Source: Deltaproteobacteria bacterium (GTDB lineage: Bacteria > UBA10199 > DSSB01 > JACPFA01). From it: a stretch of 64,000 nucleotides of DNA. The position numbers and the translations under genes were made by a program. Location: contig JACPFA010000025.1 in assembly GCA_016183235.1 (NCBI GenBank), positions 4,709 to 68,708 on the forward strand, in the 5' to 3' direction. Positions 6,195 through 51,395 of the stretch are shown here, piece by piece. The notes beneath the pieces were generated by a model. That model made no database searches. It worked only from the letters and a program-made list of their open reading frames with translations, and was not told where the DNA came from. Numbering within the stretch: position 1 is the first letter of the stretch; each line of letters opens with the position of its first letter.

Positions 6195-6803
6195 TTAGGT
6201 CAATTCACAAAAATTTTGTAAAATTTTCAACCCAATACTTTGGGATTTTTCGGGGTGAAATTGGGTAGCGAAAATATTTTCCCATTCTAAGGCCGCTGCA
6301 AAATTAACCCCATAATCGGTGGTGGCTGCTAAAATATTTGGATTTTTGGGTTCTACATAAAAACTATGCACGAAATAAACATAGGCTTCATTGGGAATGC
6401 CTTGAAATAAACGGGTATCTTCTGCGATTTTAAGTTGGTTCCAACCCATGTGGGGAACTTTTAATTGTGGGCTTTTATCAAAAGGGATCGCTTCGCCTTC
6501 AAAAATTCCTAAACCTTCATATTTGCCAAATTCTAAACTGTAACTCATGAGAATTTGCATGCCTAAGCAAATACCCAAATAGGGTTTGCCCGAACGAATA
6601 AATTCACGAATGGGTTCAAGCAGGCCATAATTTTGCAAATTTTTCATGCAGTCGCCAAAGGCCCCCACCCCTGGCACCACGAGTTTGTCGGCTTGGCGAA
6701 TTTTTTCAGGGCTTCGGCAAACCTCAACCTTGGCGCCCACTTTAGTAAGCGCCTTAGAAACGCTATTCAAATTTCCCATATCGTAATCAACGACAATAAT
6801 CAT
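6195..6803 (-). CDS. hisH: imidazole glycerol phosphate synthase, glutaminase subunit
   Basis: 202 aa with class I amidotransferase motifs (GICLGMQ, FHPEKS). Confidence 0.95.
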   Translation of the reverse strand: MIIVVDYDMGNLNSVSKALTKVGAKVEVCRSPEKIRQADKLVVPGVGAFGDCMKNLQNYGLLEPIREFIRSGKPYLGICLGMQILMSYSLEFGKYEGLGIFEGEAIPFDKSPQLKVPHMGWNQLKIAEDTRLFQGIPNEAYVYFVHSFYVEPKNPNILAATTDYGVNFAAALEWENIFATQFHPEKSQSIGLKILQNFCELT

Positions 6804-6811
6804 ATAGAGTC

Positions 6812-6842
6812 TGTCATTCCGAGCGAGAGCGAGGAATCTTCC
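6812..6842. repeat. SPE type A variant, single half-unit
   Basis: TGTCATTCCGAGCGAGAGCGAGGAATCTTCC in the 42-bp hisH-hisB gap. Confidence 0.75.
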
Positions 6843-6845
6843 GTT

Positions 6846-7454
6846 TTATAATTTCCCCTTTACTGAGGGTAGACTCGTTGGTGCCCGCGGATCAATGCTG
6901 GTTGCATAATCGCAAGCCTTAGCAAAGGCTTTGAAAATTGATTCTACAATGTGGTGCTTGTTGCGACCGTAATTCACATTGATGTGCAAATTGATTTTGG
7001 CGGCATTGGTGAAGCCTTGAAAAAATTCCGAGGTTAATTCTACATCGAACAACCCATTACCAATCCGGCCTTTTTTCACAGGGTTTTTGTAAACCATACA
7101 AGGTCTTCCGCAAAAATCTAATGCAACGGTGGTGAGCACTTCATCCATGGGTAAGATACAAAACCCATAACGGCGAATGCCAAGTTTTTTCCCCAAGGCG
7201 GCTTCGAAGGCTTCGCCTAAGGTAATGCCCACATCTTCAACCAAATGATGAGGGTCTACTTGCACATCGCCTCGGGCTTTTAGGGTAAGATCAAACAGCC
7301 CATGGCGAGCAAAGGTCTCCAACATGTGGTTAAAAAAAGGCAAGGGCGTATTAATGGAATATCGCCCAGTACCGTCGATTTTTAGCTCGAGGGTGATTTG
7401 GGTCTCTTTCGTATTGCGTACTCTTTTAGCAGTGCGTGTTTTAATTTTGGCCAT
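6846..7454 (-). CDS. hisB: imidazoleglycerol-phosphate dehydratase
   Basis: 202 aa with IGPD motifs (HHLVEDVGI, HHIVESIFKAF). First gene of the his cluster. Confidence 0.95.
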   Translation of the reverse strand: MAKIKTRTAKRVRNTKETQITLELKIDGTGRYSINTPLPFFNHMLETFARHGLFDLTLKARGDVQVDPHHLVEDVGITLGEAFEAALGKKLGIRRYGFCILPMDEVLTTVALDFCGRPCMVYKNPVKKGRIGNGLFDVELTSEFFQGFTNAAKINLHINVNYGRNKHHIVESIFKAFAKACDYATSIDPRAPTSLPSVKGKL

Positions 7455-7603
7455 AAGATTAATAACTATAGGAAATATTTAGACTTTTGTCAACTAACCA
7501 AGGTGTCGCCAGAAATTCCATTTTCTTCTAGGGTGGGCTTTTGTTATAATTTTGAGAAGGCAAGTGAACTCAAAGCTTTAGGGTAGGTGGGGGCAATTTC
7601 AAC

Positions 7604-8716
7604 GTGGCGGTTAAAAAACTTAAATCCATCAATTTAGAGCTCGAATCGTTGCAGGCCAGGCAGCGGGCCTTGGATCGGTTTGCTTGTTTGTTGCAACTGG
7701 ATGCGAATGGTAAAATTTTAGAAGTCAATCACCGCATAGTTGAATTGTTAGGTTTTTCAGAATCCGAACTCATTCACCAAGATTTATCTTGTTTGGTTTT
7801 TAATTATTCTTCTTCAGGGTCACTGACTAAAATGTGGGCGACTTTACGCAGTGGCAAAATTTGGGCAGGGGAATTCAACGCCAAAAAGCGCGATGGTAAA
7901 AACTATTGGCTGCAAGTGACCGTAGCACCTGTGCTCGACACCGAAGGCAAAATTAAGAGTTATGTCTTAATTGGCAACGACATCATGGACCAAAAGAAAA
8001 TGGAAGAGCTGAAAGATGGTTTTATCAGTGCTGTGTCCCACGAAATTCGTACTCCACTCACCTTAATTCGGGCGGCGGTGAGTAACCTTTTAGATGGAGT
8101 CGTAGGCAGCCTGACCCCGCAACAACTCAAGGTGTTAGATATCGCGAGCCGAAGTTGTGATCGCTTAACCCGCATTATTAATGACTTGTTAGATCTTTCT
8201 AGGCTTGAGTCGGATCGGATTCGACCCAAGCTACAACGGGTTGATGTTGCTTATTTGTTGCACGAAGCCATCCAAGAATTTTACGAAGATGCCCAAAAGC
8301 AGAATATCAAATTAAAAATAAAAATTCCTGCAAGTATTTCGGATGTAGAAGCCGATTTTAATTGGATCACCCGAGTTTTAGATCACTTGGTTCACAACGC
8401 CTTACGTTTTGCTAAATCCGAGGTGGTGGTAGAGGCAAAAGATTTAGGCGAAATGATTCAAATTGGGGTGTTAGACGATGGCGTTGGAGTAGCCCCGGAG
8501 AACAAAGCAAAATTATTTGAAAAGTTTATTCAATTGGATCGCCCTGCCGGTGGGGCTGGTTATAAAGGCACGGGGCTTGGTTTGGCGATTTGTAGAGAAA
8601 TTTTAAACATGCATGAAAGTAAAATTTGGGTGGAAAGTGAACCAGGCGTTGGGGCGCGGTTTTATTTTTTATTGTCAAAGTCAAGGGAGTTGCCGGTGGT
8701 AATACCCTTTAACTAA
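7604..8716 (+). CDS. cytoplasmic PAS-domain sensor histidine kinase
   Basis: GTG start. PAS-like region (..KRDGKNYWLQVTVAPV..), H-box SHEIRTPLT, and HATPase N/G boxes (HNALRF, DDGVGV, GTGLGLAI). No TM segment. Confidence 0.9.
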   Translation: MAVKKLKSINLELESLQARQRALDRFACLLQLDANGKILEVNHRIVELLGFSESELIHQDLSCLVFNYSSSGSLTKMWATLRSGKIWAGEFNAKKRDGKNYWLQVTVAPVLDTEGKIKSYVLIGNDIMDQKKMEELKDGFISAVSHEIRTPLTLIRAAVSNLLDGVVGSLTPQQLKVLDIASRSCDRLTRIINDLLDLSRLESDRIRPKLQRVDVAYLLHEAIQEFYEDAQKQNIKLKIKIPASISDVEADFNWITRVLDHLVHNALRFAKSEVVVEAKDLGEMIQIGVLDDGVGVAPENKAKLFEKFIQLDRPAGGAGYKGTGLGLAICREILNMHESKIWVESEPGVGARFYFLLSKSRELPVVIPFN

Positions 8717-41764: not shown

Positions 41765-43063
41765 TTATATTAAACTCCCTCTAAAAATCCCCCCTAATTC
41801 TTCGGTTAATTTCACAAGGTGAATTTCTTTTCGCAACTCGCGCTCCGATTGCACCTGCACTCGCAAATAATTCTTGGTGTAACCCGAATAGCGGGGGTGA
41901 TCATTTTGGTCAAATAGCACAGGCATGCTACACCCCACAAACTTTTTTGCATAATTAGCTTTTTGTTTTTGCATGAGGCTTGCCAAAACTTTGCTGCGAT
42001 GTTTGATGACCTCGGGGTCAACATGCTGAGGTAATTTAGCAGCAGCTGTGCCAGTTCGATCGCTGTAGCGAAAAACATGCATATAGGTGAAGGGTTGTCG
42101 CTCAATAAATTCTAAAGTATTTTGAAAATGTTTTTCGGTTTCGCCCGGAAAGCCAACAATCACATCCGTGCCTAAAGCGGCATTGGGAAGATAATGCTGA
42201 AAACGTTCCATGAGCCGTGCGTAATCGGCCAGGCGATATTTGCGGTTCATGGCTTGCAAGAGATCGTCATTGCCGCTTTGCAAAGGGATATGCAAATGCG
42301 GGCAGATCGTTTGTGAATCAGCAATGGTTTGGAGCAATTCATCGGTAACGGTGTTGGGTTCAATCGAGCTGATGCGAATTCTTTTAAGGTCAGAAATTTT
42401 TTCTAAGCCCTTTAATAAATCTACCAAATAATAAGTTTGATCTTGGGTAATTTGATAAGTGCCAATGTTAATGCCGGTGAGCACAATTTCTTGATAGCCT
42501 TGTGCAGCCAGCAACTGGGCTTCGCTTAAAGTATTTTCAAAAGGGCGGGAGCGTGCCTTGCCCCTTGCAAAGGGAATGATGCAGTAAGAGCAGTAATAAT
42601 CACAACCCTCCTGCACTTTTAAAAACGCCCGGGTGCGATTTGTCGCAGAGATAAAACCGTCCACACTCACTTCATCAAACTCACCGCGATCGTTCACGAT
42701 GGTAAGCACTTCTTGCGATTCATGATTGGCAAGGGTTTTAAGATGATCGAGGATTCGATATTTTTCATCGGTTCCCAAAATGAGATTCACCCCTTCAATG
42801 GCCTTAATTTCCTCAGGTTTAATTTGGGCGTAACAGCCGGTAACCACCACGCGGGCTTGTGGTGAAGTGCGGATGGCTTGGCGAATGGCGGCGCGGCTTT
42901 TGCTGTCAGCGTCGTTAGTGACGGTGCAGGTATTAATAATGGTAAGGTCAACCGGTTCGGCAAAATCACGCACCGCGAAGCCGGCTTTTTTAAATTGGTC
43001 AGCTAGGGCGTCGGTTTCGGATTGGTTGAGTTTGCAACCCAAGGTTTTAAAACTCACCGTCAT
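41765..43063 (-). CDS. mtaB: MiaB-like tRNA methylthiotransferase (MtaB type)
   Basis: Start set at MTVSFKTLGCKLNQSETD. Radical SAM CDYYCSYC. The longer ORF start at 43147 is the CAT of a TGTCAT repeat terminus. Confidence 0.85.
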   Translation of the reverse strand: MTVSFKTLGCKLNQSETDALADQFKKAGFAVRDFAEPVDLTIINTCTVTNDADSKSRAAIRQAIRTSPQARVVVTGCYAQIKPEEIKAIEGVNLILGTDEKYRILDHLKTLANHESQEVLTIVNDRGEFDEVSVDGFISATNRTRAFLKVQEGCDYYCSYCIIPFARGKARSRPFENTLSEAQLLAAQGYQEIVLTGINIGTYQITQDQTYYLVDLLKGLEKISDLKRIRISSIEPNTVTDELLQTIADSQTICPHLHIPLQSGNDDLLQAMNRKYRLADYARLMERFQHYLPNAALGTDVIVGFPGETEKHFQNTLEFIERQPFTYMHVFRYSDRTGTAAAKLPQHVDPEVIKHRSKVLASLMQKQKANYAKKFVGCSMPVLFDQNDHPRYSGYTKNYLRVQVQSERELRKEIHLVKLTEELGGIFRGSLI

Positions 43064-43141
43064 GGGTTGGTTGGCACTTCTTAACATAAAGTTTGGGTAG
43101 CCAAGGATTTTGCGAAAAACAAGTGGAAATTTGGAATATAA

Positions 43142-43211
43142 TGTCATTCAGAGCACAGCAGGGTTCCATGTCATTGCGAGCGAGCCCCATTGGCGAGCGT
43201 GGCAATCTTCC
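43142..43211. repeat. two tandem SPE half-units (truncated C-like unit + type A)
   Basis: TGTCATTCAGAGCACAGCAGGGTTCC then TGTCATTGCGAGCGAGCCCCATTGGCGAGCGTGGCAATCTTCC. Confidence 0.8.
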
Positions 43212-43246
43212 ATTTTATTCTTCAATTCATCTGCAAATAGAGCCAC

Positions 43247-43480
43247 GTCTTTTTGAAAAGTAGAGAGGGCCTATCCTTGTTTGCAAACGCGCACCGTTCG
43301 CCCTACTGTTCGCCATCTGTCATTGCGAGCCCAGCAGGGCGAAGCAATCTCTTCTGTTTAAGCGATGGGATTGCCGCGCCCGTTGGGCTCGCAATGACAG
43401 CATTTGCATTGCCTTCGTGCGGGCTCTCTCCTGGTAATGTTTTCAAACAAGGATAGGCCCTCTCTACTTTTCAAAAAGAC
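43247..43480. repeat. long hairpin element LHE-D1 (234 bp) with a nested type A doublet
   Basis: Outer arms GTCTTTTTGAAAAGTAGAGAGGGCCTATCCTTGTTTG / CAAACAAGGATAGGCCCTCTCTACTTTTCAAAAAGAC. Confidence 0.85.
43318..43399. repeat. SPE type A doublet nested in LHE-D1
   Basis: 82 nt, TGTCATTGCGAGCCCAGCAGGGCGAAGCAATCTC..CCCGTTGGGCTCGCAATGACA. Same length and right half as the copy inside LHE-F1. Confidence 0.9.
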
Positions 43481-43505
43481 TTCTCCGCAAATATTTGAAG
43501 AGATA

Positions 43506-43725
43506 TAAAAAGTTTTACTGAGAGGGGCTAGGGGGTAACTTGAGAGCCTTTTAGCGCAGGAGGTCGGCTGTAGGAGGGCTTAAAAATTTTATTGTTTTTT
43601 TGAATTAGAGGATGACAGAGGAATACTCTAATTCAATTAAAAACAAAAAATTTTTAAGCCCTCCTTAAGCCGACCGGGCGCGGGCTCTCAAGTTACCCCC
43701 TAGCCCCTCTCAGTAAAACTTTTTA
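43506..43725. repeat. long hairpin element LHE-D2 (220 bp)
   Basis: Layers: TAAAAAGTTTTACTGAGAGGGGCTAGGGGGTAACT.. / ..AGTTACCCCCTAGCCCCTCTCAGTAAAACTTTTTA, then GAGAGCCTTTTAGCGCAGGAGGTCGG / CCGACCGGGCGCGGGCTCTC, then an A/T stem. Core GAATTAGAG-GATGACAGAGGAATA-CTCTAATTC. Confidence 0.9.
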
Positions 43726-43823: not shown

Positions 43824-46800
43824 ATGACAAATGATCCCATTCGCAATGAGGGGTCCACTAGTTGGTGGGATCCTTTTTATTTTCGTGTTGAGTCAGGGCC
43901 AACTAAATTAGCTGATAAACCTGATCCGAGCCTTGTTCAAGCTTTGCACTTGCGAGGTAGTGAACTGTTGCGTTTTGGCGATGAGCAGCAAAAAACCGTC
44001 GGGGCATCCTTATTACAATGGGTTGAAGCGCAAGGGGGATATGAAGGTGAATTGGCCGCGAGTGAATTATGTAAAGGCGGGGCTGAGAGCAAGCGAGGGT
44101 GTAGCGGGGTTGAGCGAGTGGTGGGGGGAGCTACACAAGTGATGCAGAATTTGGATGTAGGCGATGTGGCATTATTAGCCGGGGTAGGGTTGTTGGGGCA
44201 AGCGACGCGTAATGGGGTCATGTCATGGATGGGGAGACGAGTCGAGAGTTGGTGGAACCGCGGAACGGTGGGAACGGTGCTAGCCCGAGGGGTTGGAGTT
44301 ACGACCGAGGTAGCTGGAATTACGGGAATTGGGGTGGCTGAAAAATTAAAGCATGGAGAATCAGTAAACCTAGGGGACGAAGCTTTACGAACGGGGGTTG
44401 GATGGTTGGGCTTGCGTTTAGGGATGTTGGGGGTGGGTGGTACGGCACAGGCTTTCCATTATGTGGGCAGATATGAGGTGCCGAGGTTAGTTGGAGGGAT
44501 GACATTCACAAGGGTGACGAGTGCTTTCGTCGGAGGTACTGCGGGAATGGTAGGGGCAGAAACGTTATTTGAAAGTTCAGACGGTTTATCGAAACGAGCT
44601 TTGAGTCAAAAAGTTTATCAAGCAGCCACGACACAAGCCAAATTTATGGTGGGGATGCGAGGGATCCACGCCTTATTTCCTAGCGTGGCACATGCCAGCC
44701 AGCGCTTATCTGTTGCGCATGTTTATTTACAACGCGGGATTCAGCCAAAAACAATCACGCCTCCCAATGGGTTTGACCGATTTTTAGGAACCCTTTCTTC
44801 TTATGGTGCCTGGCAGCCCGCTATGGCTTTCCCCGGGCGTGTAGAAGGGCCACTCAAAGGAATGCAATTTGGTGCTTTAGTTGAGCCGGCTTTGGGTGCC
44901 GGTCGTGGTGGTGCTAATCGCCGGGTTAAGGTTGATGAAAGTAGACCGCCGATGGGTGTGGTGCCGTTTTTTGGAACAAGATTTGAAAAAACTCCGACTC
45001 AATTTCAAGTTCCCAATCCTGAAGCAATTGCCAGCTGTTTAGCAGCAGATCCTACTTATGCTGCACAGTTACTCGGTCATTTTGGCCTAACGACCCATGC
45101 CTTAGATATACGTGCCTTTGCCCGTGGTTTTAATCTCGCCCGCCAAAATCCCGAAACCGTGCGCACTACCGCGTGGGATCTTGATGAAGTGCAATTGCAT
45201 TGGGCCCTGACACCGGCGGGCCTACTACGTGGCAACGGTAGAGGACAGGACGCCCGGTATCATCATACAGACCCCAAAGTTTTTGACCCTCAAACTTATC
45301 AGCCCTATCAGCCCCGTCATAAACCCAACCCCCTGCTACGTGCGGTGTATTGGGCTATGGATGGTTTTCGTTTGCGCCAAGAAATGCAGTTGCATCCGGG
45401 GGTGCCGGCCTATGAGTTAGGTTTGCGCCTGGGTCAAGCCGACAATCTTATTTTGTGCACCACCGGGCCCTCAGGTCGTTTTATGATCTTGGCCAATGAA
45501 GTGCCGGCGTTGAAATATATTTATTTTGGTAAAGGCCCTGATGAATTGGTCACCGACCGCGACGTGCGTCATGCACCTAACATTTACACCCGTGAACATT
45601 TGGCTATGGCCATGCAACAGGCAGCTAGCTTGCGTTATCTGGCCGATGAACATCCTCTGGTGGTTGATTATGTTCACCGGGTGCAAAATAATCCTAAAGG
45701 TGGGGCCAAGCTCAAACATCCAGCCTTGCCTTTGTTGCTAGCCAAGGCGGGCATTGCCAAGCGGCCCTTCAATCGTTTGGTCGATGATTCGTCTTCTACT
45801 TATAAAATGTTGGCCGCCTTGCCTGGCTTTACCATCTATCAACCTCCGTCCAACCGTAAAAAGTTTTCCCTTTGGCCCTTGTCGTTCTTAAATCTTACTT
45901 TAGGCACTTCTAGTGGTTATTTAAATCGGATGAGTGGTTATTATGTTGATGATTTGGCCAATGCCATGGGCAATGGTTATCAATCCGTTCGGTTGCCTCG
46001 CACTGCACCGATTCCTGCCGATTATCCTCATCAACGTCTTGCGATCGAACTCCCTTGGTGGCGCCACGACCGCGAATACTTTGGCCCCATGCGCGACATT
46101 AAGGCAGACGCGCGGGCCGTTCGTGCAGCCCATTTGCCGCCGACGTTTAAAAATCGTTATGTAGCCATGCGCCATGGTCTAGCGCGTAGTAACTCGTACG
46201 ATCAGGTGGTGAGTGATCCAGCTCGGGCAAGCCTGCCGAAATGGGGGCTTGAGCCTGAAAGCCGCACTCATATGCGTGAGTCGTTTAACAAATGGTTTGA
46301 TAGCAATCAGCCACAAATTGAAGCGGCCCTGCAAGCCGGCAAGTTGCACATCTTCAGTTCTGATTTTAGCCGTGCCCGTGAAACCGCTGAAATTGCGGCC
46401 GCGGTTATCTATGAAAAAACCGGCAAACATATTGCAATTCAAATCGCTCCCGCTTTACGTGATCGAGGCTTTGGTGGGGCGGAAGGGCAAAGCCCTGCCG
46501 CTACTTACTATAACCAAGTATGGGCAGAAGATCCCAAAAATCCCCATCATAAAATGTTCGGGGCCGAATCGGCTCACGAGGTGCAAGGCCGCTTTGTCAC
46601 ATTCATGAAAGGTTTGGAAAAACGTTTTAGCGATGGTGACCACTTGGTATTACTTTTCTCCCACGGCGATCTGATGCGCATTGGCATGACGGCTGTAAAC
46701 GACATGAACCCTGGTTTACATGTGGAGCGCTTTGGTTATATCTTTAATGGGGACCCCATCGATATGCGACGCCAACCCAATATCGTTCAGGCGCCCACAA

Positions 46801-48098
46801 AATTAAACAATCAATTTGTGGCCGTTCGGCATGGGCAGGCGGTTCCTAATGTTGAGAAGCACTTAGTGTCTTCTCCCAAAATAGGCATGGAACCTGGCCA
46901 GGGGTTAACAGCCACAGGCCGCATACAAACCCGTGAACGCACGCTTGCCTGGTATGATGCCAACCAAGCCCGAATCGATGAAGCCTTAGCCGCCGGCAAA
47001 TTGCATATTTATGCCTCGCCTTTTACCCGTACCACCGAGACTGCCCAATTAGCCGCTGATGTTCTTTATGAAAAAACAGGCAAGCGAGTTCACGTTGTCC
47101 GTGCCGATGAATTGCGCGAACGCTATTTTGGTGAGCGGGATGGTTCAAACGATCCATGGTCAGTTTATCGAGCGGTGTGGGCGGAAGATAAAACCAATCC
47201 TCACCACCATTACCAACAGGCTGAAAACCCTTACCAAGTTCAAGCCCGCTTTTTGGGATTCATGAATGAACTCGACCGTCGTTATGCCGACGGCGATCAC
47301 TTGGTTTTGCTATATTCCCACGGTGATGTCATTCGTTTGAGCGTAGCGGGATTAACGCGTTCTCCAAGCTACGATCCGGCGGTTCATAAAGAGTCTTTTG
47401 GAGATGTTCACCATGTCGAATATCGGGAACTTACTGCTATGGAAAGTCCGCCGGTAGGGAGTCGTTTCCAATATCGATTGATGAATTCTACGGATTATCA
47501 AGAAATGCCTTGGGCGAGTGGAAAGGGTGTAACCCATCAAGTAGCCATCAATCCCCCCAACGCCGATATGAAGGCCAAAGACTTTGCCTGGCGGGTGAGC
47601 ATGGCACCGGTGAAAGACGAAGGGGCGTGGAGCCATTTCACGGGTTATCAGCGAGTGGTGGTTATTACAGAAGGTCCAGGTATTGTTTTAACTCATCATA
47701 TGGATGATGCTTTGCCGGTAACAAATAGGGTGTTGCCATGGCAGGTTTATCGTTTCGATGGTACAGCAACCACTAAGCCTGAATTAATCGGTGGAATCCC
47801 GATCAAAGATTTTAGCGTTATTTACGATCCCACCCGTGCCCGTGTGAACGTGAGCGTATTAGATGGCACGAATGGTAGTGTCGATAAGGGGGCCCTGCGT
47901 GCCTTGACCCAAGGCGACCATTATTATCATTGTGCCCAAGGCCCTTGTACTATTGCTATCAAAGGTGAAGCCGAACATCACTTGAACCAAGGCGACACCT
48001 TTCATTTACAAGTTCAACCGAATAACGCCGTGCAAATTACCGTGAGACCTGGTTCTTCCACTGCTAAGGTAATTAGCACTTCCATATACCCTCGTTAA
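43824..48098 (+). CDS. orphan 1424-aa multidomain protein: Gly-rich N-terminus, unknown core, 2x histidine phosphatase (PGAM-type), HutD-like C-terminus
   Basis: Uninterrupted ORF. RHG..N / R..ETA / SHGD motif sets occur twice (near aa 775-985 and 996-1180). C-terminal MPWASGKGVTHQV..FAWRVSMAPV..WSHFTGYQRVVVI resembles HutD/Ves. Locally GC-rich. Confidence 0.8.
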   Translation: MTNDPIRNEGSTSWWDPFYFRVESGPTKLADKPDPSLVQALHLRGSELLRFGDEQQKTVGASLLQWVEAQGGYEGELAASELCKGGAESKRGCSGVERVVGGATQVMQNLDVGDVALLAGVGLLGQATRNGVMSWMGRRVESWWNRGTVGTVLARGVGVTTEVAGITGIGVAEKLKHGESVNLGDEALRTGVGWLGLRLGMLGVGGTAQAFHYVGRYEVPRLVGGMTFTRVTSAFVGGTAGMVGAETLFESSDGLSKRALSQKVYQAATTQAKFMVGMRGIHALFPSVAHASQRLSVAHVYLQRGIQPKTITPPNGFDRFLGTLSSYGAWQPAMAFPGRVEGPLKGMQFGALVEPALGAGRGGANRRVKVDESRPPMGVVPFFGTRFEKTPTQFQVPNPEAIASCLAADPTYAAQLLGHFGLTTHALDIRAFARGFNLARQNPETVRTTAWDLDEVQLHWALTPAGLLRGNGRGQDARYHHTDPKVFDPQTYQPYQPRHKPNPLLRAVYWAMDGFRLRQEMQLHPGVPAYELGLRLGQADNLILCTTGPSGRFMILANEVPALKYIYFGKGPDELVTDRDVRHAPNIYTREHLAMAMQQAASLRYLADEHPLVVDYVHRVQNNPKGGAKLKHPALPLLLAKAGIAKRPFNRLVDDSSSTYKMLAALPGFTIYQPPSNRKKFSLWPLSFLNLTLGTSSGYLNRMSGYYVDDLANAMGNGYQSVRLPRTAPIPADYPHQRLAIELPWWRHDREYFGPMRDIKADARAVRAAHLPPTFKNRYVAMRHGLARSNSYDQVVSDPARASLPKWGLEPESRTHMRESFNKWFDSNQPQIEAALQAGKLHIFSSDFSRARETAEIAAAVIYEKTGKHIAIQIAPALRDRGFGGAEGQSPAATYYNQVWAEDPKNPHHKMFGAESAHEVQGRFVTFMKGLEKRFSDGDHLVLLFSHGDLMRIGMTAVNDMNPGLHVERFGYIFNGDPIDMRRQPNIVQAPTKLNNQFVAVRHGQAVPNVEKHLVSSPKIGMEPGQGLTATGRIQTRERTLAWYDANQARIDEALAAGKLHIYASPFTRTTETAQLAADVLYEKTGKRVHVVRADELRERYFGERDGSNDPWSVYRAVWAEDKTNPHHHYQQAENPYQVQARFLGFMNELDRRYADGDHLVLLYSHGDVIRLSVAGLTRSPSYDPAVHKESFGDVHHVEYRELTAMESPPVGSRFQYRLMNSTDYQEMPWASGKGVTHQVAINPPNADMKAKDFAWRVSMAPVKDEGAWSHFTGYQRVVVITEGPGIVLTHHMDDALPVTNRVLPWQVYRFDGTATTKPELIGGIPIKDFSVIYDPTRARVNVSVLDGTNGSVDKGALRALTQGDHYYHCAQGPCTIAIKGEAEHHLNQGDTFHLQVQPNNAVQITVRPGSSTAKVISTSIYPR

Positions 48099-48151: not shown

Positions 48152-48640
48152 ATGATTATGAAGAAAGAAAAAATTTTTGAAATTGGTTCGCCAGCCCCTG
48201 CCTTTGAGTTGCCCGATCAAGATGGTAAGCCCATCAAACTTAGCGATCATCGTGGTAAGTGGGTGGTGCTCTATTTTTATCCAAAAGATAATACCCCTGG
48301 TTGCACCATCGAGGCCATTAATTTTACTAAATCGTTAGCTCGATTAACGGACTTAAATGCCGTTGTGTTAGGGGTGAGCGCTGATACTCCCGAATGCCAT
48401 CAAAAATTTATCAAAAAACAAAAGCTTAAAATCAATCTCTTGAGTGATCCTGAACATAAAATGATTGAAAACTATGGCTGCTGGGCCCCCAAAAAATTTC
48501 TGGGCCGAGAATTTTTAGGCATTTTACGCAAAACCTTTCTGATTAACCCCAAAGGCGAGATCGTTTACATTTGGCCTAAGGTCAAGGTGCTAGGTCACGC
48601 CGCCGAAGTCGAAGCCAAATTAAAAGAACTACAAGCTTAA
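48152..48640 (+). CDS. bcp: peroxiredoxin (Bcp type)
   Basis: 162 aa. YFYPKDNTPGCTIEA contains the peroxidatic Cys motif. Confidence 0.9.
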   Translation: MIMKKEKIFEIGSPAPAFELPDQDGKPIKLSDHRGKWVVLYFYPKDNTPGCTIEAINFTKSLARLTDLNAVVLGVSADTPECHQKFIKKQKLKINLLSDPEHKMIENYGCWAPKKFLGREFLGILRKTFLINPKGEIVYIWPKVKVLGHAAEVEAKLKELQA

Positions 48641-48678: not shown

Positions 48679-49041
48679 TTAGAGAATGTCCCTTAGTGCT
48701 TTACGGAGTGATTTCGTCACCGATTTTCTGTCTTGTGTGGACAAAACGCCTGTTTTGCGAATGATGAAACGATGATCAAGTGTGAACAACTTCATTCGAA
48801 TGACCGAGTCTGCGGAAAGCCCTGCGGAAGCGAGAGCGTTCAATTTTACATCCAGTGGCCATGCTGAATTTTTAGCACTGGTAATCATTGCCATGATACT
48901 GTGTTTTGCTTCGCTATTAAAATGAGATTTGGAAGATAAAACAAGAGCCGGTCTTTTCTTTGTTTGCGAAGAATCTGTGAAGGGGAAGGGGACCACTACC
49001 ACATCAAAGGCTTTATAAGTCACCGTAAGCCTCATCGTCAT
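48679..49041 (-). CDS. mazF: PemK/MazF family toxin
   Basis: 120 aa. DVVVVPFPFTDSSQTKKRPALVLS is the typical MazF/PemK N-terminal core. Overlaps the upstream AbrB-like gene. Confidence 0.8.
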   Translation of the reverse strand: MTMRLTVTYKAFDVVVVPFPFTDSSQTKKRPALVLSSKSHFNSEAKHSIMAMITSAKNSAWPLDVKLNALASAGLSADSVIRMKLFTLDHRFIIRKTGVLSTQDRKSVTKSLRKALRDIL

Positions 49042-49237
49042 TTTTGGAATTCCATTCTTCTAGGGTTCCTTGGAGAGATTTTGCGAATTGGAGATCGAGG
49101 GGGGATGCTTTTTTAAGAGTGACCTTGTCTTTTTGAATTTCAAAAGCAATCACATCTCCCTTTTGTAAACCTAATTTTTCTCTTACAGGGTTAGGGATCG
49201 TAGCCTGGTATTTTGAGGTTAATTTTGCAGCCAACAT
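49013..49237 (-). CDS. mazE: AbrB/MazE family antitoxin
   Basis: 74 aa. KLTSKYQATIPNPVREKLGLQKGDVIAFEIQ is a SpoVT/AbrB looped-hinge pattern. AGGAGG 7 nt upstream of the ATG. Confidence 0.75.
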   Translation of the reverse strand: MLAAKLTSKYQATIPNPVREKLGLQKGDVIAFEIQKDKVTLKKASPLDLQFAKSLQGTLEEWNSKNDDEAYGDL

Positions 49238-49713: not shown

Positions 49714-49946
49714 TTAGAGAATTTAAGCCCCCTCTTTCTCCGAAAAGATAAGCAGCGAAGTACCTAACTGCTATAGAGGGAGCATAAAAATGAATATGTT
49801 GATAAACGTTCATAAGTTGACCTTCAAGGAGCATGGTGATGGGGACCTCAATAGCCCTGTCACTTATGAGTATGTCTATACAGCCTATCTTCCCATCGAA
49901 CAGCCAGCAGAAATTTTTGACTTTTACATTAGTTGAAAGGAATTTC

Positions 49947-51395
49947 ATGATTTCTAAAGTAATTATTCCGTTTACCTTATCATGGGTATTGGTTTTGGTT
50001 GGTTTTTTATTGCCTAATTTAGTTAAGGCCGGTGGTTGCTTTGGTACCGATATTAATGGCACTTGTTTCAAATGGGACACCAGTCAGCCCATTGTCTGGA
50101 ATCCAGACCCGGGTTGTCTTAAATGCGGGTTGGGAAATTTTGATCAAGAATTAGGTGATGCCCAATTGTCCGGAGAAAAAGGTTCGGGTGGTTCTTGTCA
50201 GTTGATAGAAAAAGAAGAAGCAGCAAACACCGATATCGATAACGCCACCGCTCGAGCCATGATTACAGCTGCTTTTCAAAAGTGGATGAGTGTGCCGGGT
50301 GCCAAGCTTATCGTTCAGGAAGGGCCTGCCTTACCCGAAGACGCCAATTTGGCCACCTACACCAATTATTATATTCCCGACAGTAAATATAATCCTAATG
50401 ACCCCGAACACCCTTTGATTCTCTATAATCCCAAACATCCTCTGATCAAGGGTTGTTATGACAGTGATCCGAATACCCCTTGTTATAATCCGGTAATTTT
50501 TGATCCCAATGGCCTTATCATGCAAGATTTGATAGGACCTTGTAATCAATACACCGTTTACGGTCTTGGTGGAATTATGCCTCGGGATGGATTTAAAGAT
50601 CCAATTTTAAAGAAGGGCCAGTTTATCATCAATGCAGCTTGTATGGCCTCATCTACGGTCTTTCCTGGTTGTGAAGACGGTGGGGGTTGCTCTCGTATTT
50701 TAAGCAAGACGGATATCGAAGCGGTGATGGTCCACGAGTTAGGGCATTTTTTAGGAATGGATCATACTCAAGTGGCCCCTGAGAGTGCGTGGCTTTGTAG
50801 TGGGCTACCCAATGGTTGCACGGGTGATCTAAAAGACGACATCCCTACGATGTATGATAGACTTATTCAAAATGGTGGGCAAGAGACCTTACATATCGAC
50901 GATAAGGTGGCCTTTGCAAAATTGTATCCCGACCCTGACCCCGCCAATCAAACCTTTAAGAAGCAGGATTGTACGATCAAGGGGAGTGCATGGCACAATG
51001 GGTCTTATTTAAGGTGTGCGGAGATTTTAGCAGTACCGGTCAGCGGTGCGCTAGACGGTGAAAGCTTTGATTATGCCAATGCAGTCTCGGTTATTTCAGG
51101 GGCTGAAGCACCTAAGATCGACGTTAGTCATCGGGACCAGTGGAATTGCAGTAAGGCAGGGGGCCAATGCAGTAAGTTTGAAATCAGTGGCATTAAAGTG
51201 GGGCAAACGTATCGTCTGCAAATCCATCCCATCTACGATTGGAAGACGTCCATTGAGCCCTGTTACCCAGCCCTGGATAGTCAAGGCCAAGTGATGCACG
51301 AAGTGCCGAACATTCAGCCTAATTTGGACGCCTATGAGTTTACCTGTAATGAAGCTGGAAAGGTTTTGACAGTGGGTTACATTAATGCAAAATAA
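49947..51395 (+). CDS. secreted zinc metalloprotease (metzincin)
   Basis: Start set at ATG 49947 (GAAAGGA upstream) with signal peptide MISKVIIPFTLSWVLVLVGFLLPNLVKA. HELGHFLGMDH zinc motif. Many Cys. Confidence 0.8.
   Translation: MISKVIIPFTLSWVLVLVGFLLPNLVKAGGCFGTDINGTCFKWDTSQPIVWNPDPGCLKCGLGNFDQELGDAQLSGEKGSGGSCQLIEKEEAANTDIDNATARAMITAAFQKWMSVPGAKLIVQEGPALPEDANLATYTNYYIPDSKYNPNDPEHPLILYNPKHPLIKGCYDSDPNTPCYNPVIFDPNGLIMQDLIGPCNQYTVYGLGGIMPRDGFKDPILKKGQFIINAACMASSTVFPGCEDGGGCSRILSKTDIEAVMVHELGHFLGMDHTQVAPESAWLCSGLPNGCTGDLKDDIPTMYDRLIQNGGQETLHIDDKVAFAKLYPDPDPANQTFKKQDCTIKGSAWHNGSYLRCAEILAVPVSGALDGESFDYANAVSVISGAEAPKIDVSHRDQWNCSKAGGQCSKFEISGIKVGQTYRLQIHPIYDWKTSIEPCYPALDSQGQVMHEVPNIQPNLDAYEFTCNEAGKVLTVGYINAK

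Follow-up and report, generated by a model that had tools for sequence, protein, structure and literature searches.

A native 1424-residue protein from an uncultured UBA10199 bacterium combines a helical N-module, a candidate HAD-like domain, two histidine phosphatase modules and a HutD-like bicupin

The window analysed here is a 64,000-nucleotide (nt) stretch of contig JACPFA010000025.1 (assembly GCA_016183235.1, positions 4,709 to 68,708 of the forward strand) from a Deltaproteobacteria bacterium that GTDB places in UBA10199 (DSSB01; JACPFA01). Its largest open reading frame (ORF), correctly singled out in a preliminary description made from the sequence alone, encodes 1424 amino acids (aa), the runner-up being 1178 aa. 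At 44% G+C, a frame open for 4272 nt vastly exceeds what chance would give, and we regard the ORF as real. The ATG at 43824 is its sole possible start, with no in-frame start codon elsewhere between aa 1 and aa 24, where homology to P0002, a 1160-aa protein annotated as a 'transcriptional regulator' in a metagenome-assembled genome (MAG), begins. As described before, the gene lies between a region of nested palindromes (43142-43725), which contains two large inverted repeats, and bcp, which starts at 48152 and encodes a peroxiredoxin. The upstream flanking gene, encoding MtaB (41765-43147, minus strand), is divergent to it. The protein is made up, in this order, of an N-module, a disordered linker, a conserved domain of ~370 aa, two modules of the phosphoglycerate mutase (PGAM) type and a HutD-type bicupin:

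43824 to 48098, plus strand: whole ORF, 1424 aa, ATG start, stop codon included
43893 to 44768, plus strand: N-module, aa 24-315, all-alpha, common to paralogs with different C-terminal parts
44769 to 45008, plus strand: linker, aa 316-395, Gly/Pro/Arg-rich, predicted disordered
45021 to 46133, plus strand: conserved mid-domain, aa ~400-770, candidate remote HAD-like phosphatase domain
46155 to 46718, plus strand: histidine phosphatase module 1 (His_Phos_1, PGAM-like), aa ~778-965, with R783, H784, N790, R850 and H947
46815 to 47378, plus strand: histidine phosphatase module 2 (His_Phos_1), aa ~998-1185, with R1002, H1003, N1009, R1069, E1099 and H1166
47490 to 48029, plus strand: HutD/Ves-like bicupin, aa 1223-1402, Pfam PF05962, near full-length

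The two histidine phosphatase modules, first read from their motifs, are matched by Pfam His_Phos_1 (PF00300) in two stretches with 118.7 bits against a cut-off of 21.7, and those motifs are confirmed (RHG at aa 783 and 1002, SHGD at aa 946 and 1165). Alignment with E. coli GpmB, zebrafish TIGAR and S. pombe PGM indicates that module 2 has the complete catalytic set, including E1099, and that module 1 carries Asp880 at the position of the catalytic Glu proton donor. Both share the hallmarks of branch 1 of the histidine phosphatases (TIGAR, Shb17/YKR043C, CobC, GpmB), namely RHG, Asn at +6, a second Arg and the C-terminal His. The nearest solved sequence to module 1 is TIGAR (3e9c, E 5e-5), and among solved proteins the two modules come closest to sugar-bisphosphatases and alpha-ribazole phosphatase. 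Unlike the branch 1 enzymes, however, the modules are two tandem copies in a giant protein, module 1 has the Asp880 substitution, and an insertion of ~25 aa follows the RHG motif. This insertion is shared only with P0004 (998 aa, MAG GCA_040960375.1), the closest full-length relative of the window protein. The modules are 46% identical to each other over 203 aa, which fits an old tandem duplication; their DNA identity is only ~68%, in patches.

The C-terminal assignment to HutD in the preliminary description is borne out by PF05962, which matches aa 1223-1402 with 113.9 bits against a cut-off of 25 (E 1.3e-32) and covers profile positions 2-170 of 181. Among the sequences of solved structures, the HutD proteins of Pseudomonas fluorescens (5fcc, E 8e-18) and P. 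aeruginosa (1yll, E 1.4e-15) match, with an ungapped-like alignment of aa 1221-1349 to 5fcc. The likeness extends to Ves, although the Ves equivalog is not reached (30.8 bits against a cut-off of 292). Known HutD is a stand-alone protein of ~190 aa encoded in hut operons (PMC8034625), whereas in the window protein it terminates a chain of phosphatase modules, and no hut genes were found among the ten nearest large ORFs that we scanned. The fusion to three phosphatase modules, if the mid-domain is counted as one, offers a hint of the Rosetta-stone type: a phosphorylated metabolite, or what is left after its dephosphorylation, may be bound or acted on by HutD-like bicupins.

Upstream of these modules, aa 330-770 had been described as matching nothing, and the protein as an orphan. 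Both statements hold for the libraries: Pfam, NCBIfam, PADLOC and PDB sequences gave no match for aa 1-780. Neither holds for an exhaustive HMMER search, in which aa 1-780 were compared with 1.84 billion representatives and 24 related representatives were found at E < 1e-10; a word-index search with the whole protein gave two partial relatives only. Most relatives are 40-49% identical over aa ~400-770, and several also match the N-terminal part. All 24 are unnamed or 'hypothetical' and come from MAGs ('Deltaproteobacteria bacterium', 'bacterium') or metagenomes, so that the family, as far as its phyletic distribution could be traced, is limited to such sources and uncharacterised. The source MAG of one relative is named UBA10199, a candidate phylum of which only MAGs are known, and one source metagenome is labelled groundwater. 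The stretch that had seemed unrecognisable thus divides into the disordered linker and a conserved domain for which we propose a remote relationship to the haloacid dehalogenase (HAD) phosphatases.

The proposal starts from six putative catalytic residues, D452 and D454 (motif I, AWDLDEV), T546 (motif II, LCTTG), K631 (motif III, KLKHPA), and D654 and D655 (motif IV, LVDDS), all invariant in 16 of 16 aligned sequences (alignment A2), as are E455, V456, H632 and S656. A DxD, a Thr, a Lys and an acidic pair correspond, in their order and their chemistry, to HAD motifs I to IV, and an Asp at +2 is what marks phosphatases and mutases among the HADs. A large cap-like insertion separates motifs I and II, and conserved PS.R and DYP.QR segments follow motif IV. 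AlphaFold2, run with A2, gave a confident model (predicted local distance difference test score, pLDDT, 88.8; predicted template modelling score, pTM, 0.90) in which, as in HADs, every motif comes after a beta-strand or ahead of a helix. A strand at aa 449-451 (model positions 65-67) lies directly ahead of D452, a strand at aa 543-545 leads to T546 and then a helix, K631 stands just ahead of the helix at aa 635-641, and a strand at aa 651-653 precedes D654/D655.

Structure comparison points in the same direction, through weak matches. Of the 50 best weak Foldseek matches in the PDB, nine are HAD hydrolases, including the top two (2ybd and 3m9l) and the T4 Pnkp phosphatase; the best, 2ybd, has E 0.77 and a template modelling (TM) score of 0.44. 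In the viral library BFVD the best match (E 0.13) is an unnamed protein and the best named HAD-type match is a PNKP phosphatase (E 0.57). The best named viral matches, all weak, are PNKP phosphatase, PseT and baculovirus 38K, which we take to be HAD-type proteins. The top matches in both libraries are thus enriched in HAD folds.

Profile comparison allowed the relationship to be set against controls. When A2 was ranked by hhalign against 147 ORFs of at least 150 aa from three E. coli K-12 regions containing six annotated HAD phosphatases, the four HADs with a type I cap (subfamily I) came at ranks 1, 2, 4 and 9 of 147, and YidA and SerB were unremarkable. Against a profile of four E. coli HADs, the mid-domain aligned collinearly over 217 columns (E 4.3e-4, score 35.7). 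On Gph, D452/D454 fall on the DxD, T546 on the motif II Thr, K631 on the motif III Lys and D655 on the motif IV Asp, the corresponding Gph segments being AFDLDGT, LVTN, KKPHPDP and FVGDS. The score was 14.0 for the reversed profile, 14.5 +/- 2.1 (maximum 19.2) for 40 column-shuffled profiles, and 21.4 +/- 2.8 (maximum 32.2) for 40 block-shuffled profiles in which the motifs were kept and their order scrambled. The other domains of the family scored 9.7 and 12.6 against the HAD profile.

On the strength of the invariant motifs, the model and these comparisons, we consider it likely that the mid-domain is a very divergent, remote HAD fold. Like the subfamily I HADs (E. coli Gph, YjjG, YieH and YrfG, with the cap after motif I), it has four motifs of matching order and chemistry, which run from DxDx[TV] through a conserved Thr and a conserved Lys with H/P-P-like residues behind it to an acidic pair ahead of Ser; in the model the motifs sit where strands end, and an insertion separates motifs I and II. 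It differs from them in being ~370 rather than ~220 aa long, with a bigger insertion and ~110 conserved extra residues past motif IV, in having DD instead of GDxxxD as motif IV, and in lying within proteins of 800-1400 aa behind a helical N-module. What was a 'dark' stretch of ~450 residues thereby becomes a testable hypothesis, namely a new, very divergent HAD branch that current domain libraries miss and for which the 16 aligned sequences, the six invariant candidate catalytic residues and the model provide the definition.

These features lead us to favor, with a probability of roughly 0.55, a reading in which the ORF encodes a native, lineage-specific, intracellular multi-domain phosphohydrolase, possibly associated with the membrane. 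In this reading the HAD-like domain would hydrolyse a phosphomonoester via a Mg2+-dependent aspartyl-phosphate intermediate, and the PGAM-like modules would act through phosphohistidine intermediates on H784 and H1003. Module 1, in which Asp880 replaces the Glu donor, may be slower or specialised. The HutD domain could provide a small-molecule binding or regulatory pocket, and the N-module may localise or oligomerise the enzyme, possibly at the membrane. Cellular location is suggested by two observations. The preliminary description noted a Gly-rich N-terminus without a classical signal peptide, and the first 330 aa do contain 15% Gly and 10% Val, with no strongly hydrophobic N-terminal segment and a first hydropathy peak at aa 106 (judged by hydropathy only, with no dedicated predictor). 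The surrounding genes are housekeeping genes (MtaB, DUF1015, Bcp, MazEF, Ppx, TolB, MetH). Action is thus most likely intracellular, on one or several related phosphorylated small molecules.

Several results weigh against this interpretation. Profile searches of Pfam, NCBIfam and PDB sequences gave no relevant match to the mid-domain, Foldseek found nothing at E <= 0.001 for its model in the PDB or BFVD, and the hhalign probability is just 34% against the HAD profile and at most 2.2% against the single E. coli sequences. The mid-domain could also be a non-catalytic, HAD-like binding module. For the PGAM modules, all NCBIfam equivalogs (CobC, GpmB, MSMEG_4193, RNase H/acid phosphatase) score far under their cut-offs, the best being TIGR03162 (CobC) with 69.3 bits against 162.9, and nothing in the sequence points to a particular substrate. 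HutD itself has no known biochemical function and has been linked to keeping hut intermediates from accumulating (PMC8034625). Finally, the low confidence of the N-module model makes localisation a guess.

An AlphaFold2 model of the N-module based on 16 sequences is all helix, with a pLDDT of 54.5 and confidence only at aa ~110-200. It contains eight Gly/Ala/Val-rich, semi-hydrophobic helices of 18-33 residues each (most 22-33), of which four, at aa 112-248 and 27-33 residues long, are rich in G/A/S/T. The linker that follows has a pLDDT below 50 and no secondary structure in the AlphaFold2 model, aligns poorly and varies in length among relatives. Foldseek matches to the N-module model were generic helical bundles only and, given the low confidence of the model, were set aside. 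An association of the N-module with membranes is possible.

Membrane association could be taken further, with the whole protein seen as a tethered signalling or regulatory protein. In that case the semi-hydrophobic, Gly-zipper-like helices of the N-module, in or on the membrane, would act as anchor or sensor, the phosphatases would have phosphoproteins or a signalling molecule as substrates, HutD would be a ligand sensor, and the paralogs with helix-turn-helix (HTH) domains would be tethered transcription regulators. The length and composition of the four helices fit this idea, as does hydropathy of up to 1.6-1.8 in the relatives P0006 and P0009, and a disordered linker between the N-module and the enzyme part would suit a tether. 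The N-module also heads proteins made otherwise of XRE-type HTH domains, and protein phosphatases are known in both the PGAM and the HAD families. In the window protein, however, the hydropathy peaks reach 1.0-1.4, so that no 19-residue window attains the usual transmembrane threshold of ~1.6, and conserved charges such as E162 lie within the helices. There is no adjacent kinase or two-component gene in the window, and the solved proteins nearest to the PGAM modules are metabolite phosphatases. We think tethered signalling unlikely.

Comparison of the relatives reveals a common core made up of a helical N-module of ~300-450 aa, a variable linker and the mid-domain of ~370 aa. The N-module of the window protein is 64% identical over aa 24-333 to P0002, in which its counterpart is aa 2-290, and only 17-24% identical to the N-terminal ~400 aa of the mid-domain relatives; a genome-contig scan with the N-module alone gave no matches. 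What follows the core varies. P0007, P0011, P0012, P0020, L013 and L014 terminate straight after the mid-domain, and 15 of the 26 collected proteins terminate in a recurring domain of ~190 aa, which is doubled in P0005/L015. P0002 and P0003, in which the N-module is followed by arrays of XRE-type HTH domains, and an 837-aa gene in locus L002, in which it is followed by an unrelated part of 400 aa, have the N-module without the mid-domain. The preliminary description had called the architecture unusual, and among the relatives found no other has HutD and just one (P0004) has His_Phos, so that the combination of N-module, HAD-like candidate domain, two His_Phos modules and HutD appears, from the sequences compared, to be unique to the window protein. 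While the three recognisable domains are ordinary, the N-module and mid-domain define a family described by no library. This small family, with a shared helical head and interchangeable enzymatic tails, is so far documented only in uncultured bacteria; its value lies mainly in annotation and in the choice of targets for structural and enzymological work, and no long-standing major question is touched.

The ~190-aa domain is itself of interest. It is carried by P0005, P0006, P0008, P0009, P0013-P0019, P0021, P0022, P0024 and P0026 (alignment A5), with the motif VAVLGD.G..RT..LA..GH.V.ID.D ... AD.VEAYFP ... KL.PGG. Pfam has no family for it, and it is unnamed by every library scanned, with only weak Rossmann-type NAD/SAM-binding matches. 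We considered whether it might be a hidden histidine phosphatase, which is ruled out by the absence of the RHG motif.

The loci of the relatives show some recurrent arrangements. In seven distinct loci of higher-G+C relatives, rimO, which encodes the ribosomal protein S12 methylthiotransferase, lies directly downstream of the family gene on the same strand (L002, 9901-11358; L003/L004, 14016-15380; also L007, L008, L010, L011 and L012). The gap is 13 nt in L002 and in L003, and the pairing is operon-like and conserved. The window gene is not linked to rimO. Its radical-SAM neighbour might have been taken for conserved synteny with the relatives, but this is ruled out by NCBIfam, which gives MtaB in the window and RimO in the relatives. 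Paralogs also occur close together. The 837-aa gene of L002 (3388-5901), with 63% identity over the N-module, lies just upstream of P0006, in tandem, and two P0002-like genes in L001 (44-3157 and 3711-4508), at a distance of ~550 nt, flank a nucleotidyltransferase gene. In L003/L004, two metagenome contigs, a reverse-transcriptase gene (RVT_1, 476 aa, 6539-7969) is located ~2 kb upstream of the family gene with one ABC-transporter gene between the two; it is possibly part of a group II intron or a retron.

The swapping of C-terminal parts is the sole support for the resemblance to large secreted effectors or toxins that the preliminary description had drawn. If the protein were a modular secreted or translocated effector or toxin, the N-module would be the delivery domain and the C-terminal parts interchangeable cargo, as in polymorphic toxins. 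The N-module is indeed joined to HTH arrays, to the unrelated 400-aa part or, with the mid-domain in between, to His_Phos or Rossmann-like ends or to nothing more; paralogs are in tandem or close together in L001 and L002; and the lack of a signal-peptide-like N-terminus is also seen in effectors of contact-dependent systems. We examined this possibility in the window and in 12 other neighbourhoods of mid-domain relatives (17 loci fetched, some duplicates), and no secretion-system, chaperone or immunity-like gene lies beside the ORF or in the loci of the relatives, nor do the gene tables of L002-L005 contain secretion-system families. The neighbours are instead MtaB, Bcp, RimO, ABC/TonB, UvrA and RecQ. 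Pfam finds no known trafficking domain, aa 1-780 belong to no Pfam or PADLOC family, and no PADLOC defence-system family matches any part of the window protein. Codon usage is native, the large mid-domain is conserved rather than variable, and HTH arrays would be an odd toxin cargo. Conservation of the position directly upstream of rimO speaks for stable vertical descent and against a mobile toxin cassette. An effector or toxin is thus improbable.

A related idea is that the Gly-rich N-module is a new membrane-insertion or targeting device that delivers interchangeable enzymatic or DNA-binding cargo to the membrane, an organelle or another cell. This, too, seems improbable to us. If it were true, the N-module would define a family of modular proteins in the UBA10199-type lineage, and the window protein would be its three-phosphatase cargo version, operating without known secretion machinery.

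We also asked whether the domain chain belongs to one protein at all or is an artefact, as an assembly chimera or fused pseudogenes. The window derives from an uncultured organism, and the junction between module 2 and HutD (aa ~1185-1222) is without counterpart in any relative. Against this, P0004, on an independent contig, is collinear with the window protein over aa 153-976 (33% identity) in a single alignment that spans N-module, linker, mid-domain and a His_Phos module of the same subtype, so that those junctions are genuine. P0004 further has the same 4-aa insertion after motif III and comes from a low-G+C genome; it differs in having a single His_Phos module and no HutD, and its N-terminal ~170 aa are unrelated. 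The length of the open frame, catalytic motifs that are all intact and a uniform composition over five segments also argue against an artefact, and the ~68% patchy DNA identity of the two phosphatase modules is too divergent for a misassembly by repeat collapse. We therefore give an artefact very little credence and treat the chain as one native protein.

Composition bears on the origin of the gene as well. The ORF was said to have 60-65% G+C over 44.2-46.1 kb and to be either foreign or under strong compositional constraint. The first figure proved too high, since the 60-nt lines of that region average 51% G+C, only five of the 72 lines in the ORF reach 60%, and the top 300-nt window has 56.7%. 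The ORF as a whole is nevertheless richer in G+C than the other genes (50.4% against 44.4 +/- 2.4%). The excess lies in codon positions 1 and 2 (GC1/GC2 of 0.60/0.455 against about 0.52/0.38 in the other genes) and thus reflects a Gly/Ala/Pro/Arg-rich protein rather than imported DNA, so that the constraint half of the suggestion stands. At the third position the ORF resembles its neighbours (GC3 0.455 against 0.434 +/- 0.037 in 32 other genes), and its relative synonymous codon usage (RSCU) matches the rest of the window (r = 0.81, sixth best of 33 genes). Foreign origin is ruled out by these two measures, and we conclude that the gene is native. The five segments are alike, with GC of 0.485-0.513 and GC3 of 0.44-0.49. 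The ATG is not preceded by a Shine-Dalgarno-like motif, as had been noted, but neither are 22 of the 33 long ORFs of the window, and its lack is normal for this genome.

The scan of ten nearby large ORFs gave DUF1015, MtaB, Bcp, MazE/F, an M10-like protease, Ppx, TolB, MetH and SufB. Directly downstream of bcp, on the minus strand (48679-49237), a MazF/PemK toxin of 120 aa and a MazE/AbrB-type antitoxin of 74 aa are encoded with a 29-nt overlap. The plus strand at 49833-51395 encodes a Cys-rich protein of 520 aa with a hydrophobic N-terminal stretch and the metzincin motif HELGHFLGMDH. Pfam gives it only a 24-residue Matrixin match (E 8.5e-6), and the protein may be a secreted metalloprotease whose type has yet to be described.

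The intergenic region upstream of the ORF contains the remaining feature:

43142 to 43725, no strand: intergenic context, not protein; copies of a 13-nt palindrome unit resembling repetitive extragenic palindromic (REP) elements, and two large inverted repeats

The first inverted repeat has arms of 42 nt (43247-43288 and 43439-43480) with 98% complementarity and 150 nt between them, and encloses a REP pair. The second has arms of 43 nt (43506-43548 and 43683-43725) with 100% complementarity and 134 nt between them. Both are unique within the window. Could they be nested insertions resembling miniature inverted-repeat transposable elements (MITEs)? We raise this tentatively. Rfam has no match in these palindromes, and promoter and terminator scans around the ORF did no better than on shuffled sequence. 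The 13-nt unit itself, TGTCATTGCGAGC, is dispersed, with 17 copies in the window at no more than one mismatch against 0.02 expected. Its sites include 4097/4161, 15006/15063, 22786/22855, 41681/41752, 43318/43387 and 53644/53663. Most copies form inverted pairs ~20-70 nt apart, are intergenic and frequently lie just ahead of start codons, and in this genome the unit resembles a hairpin element of the REP or MITE kind.

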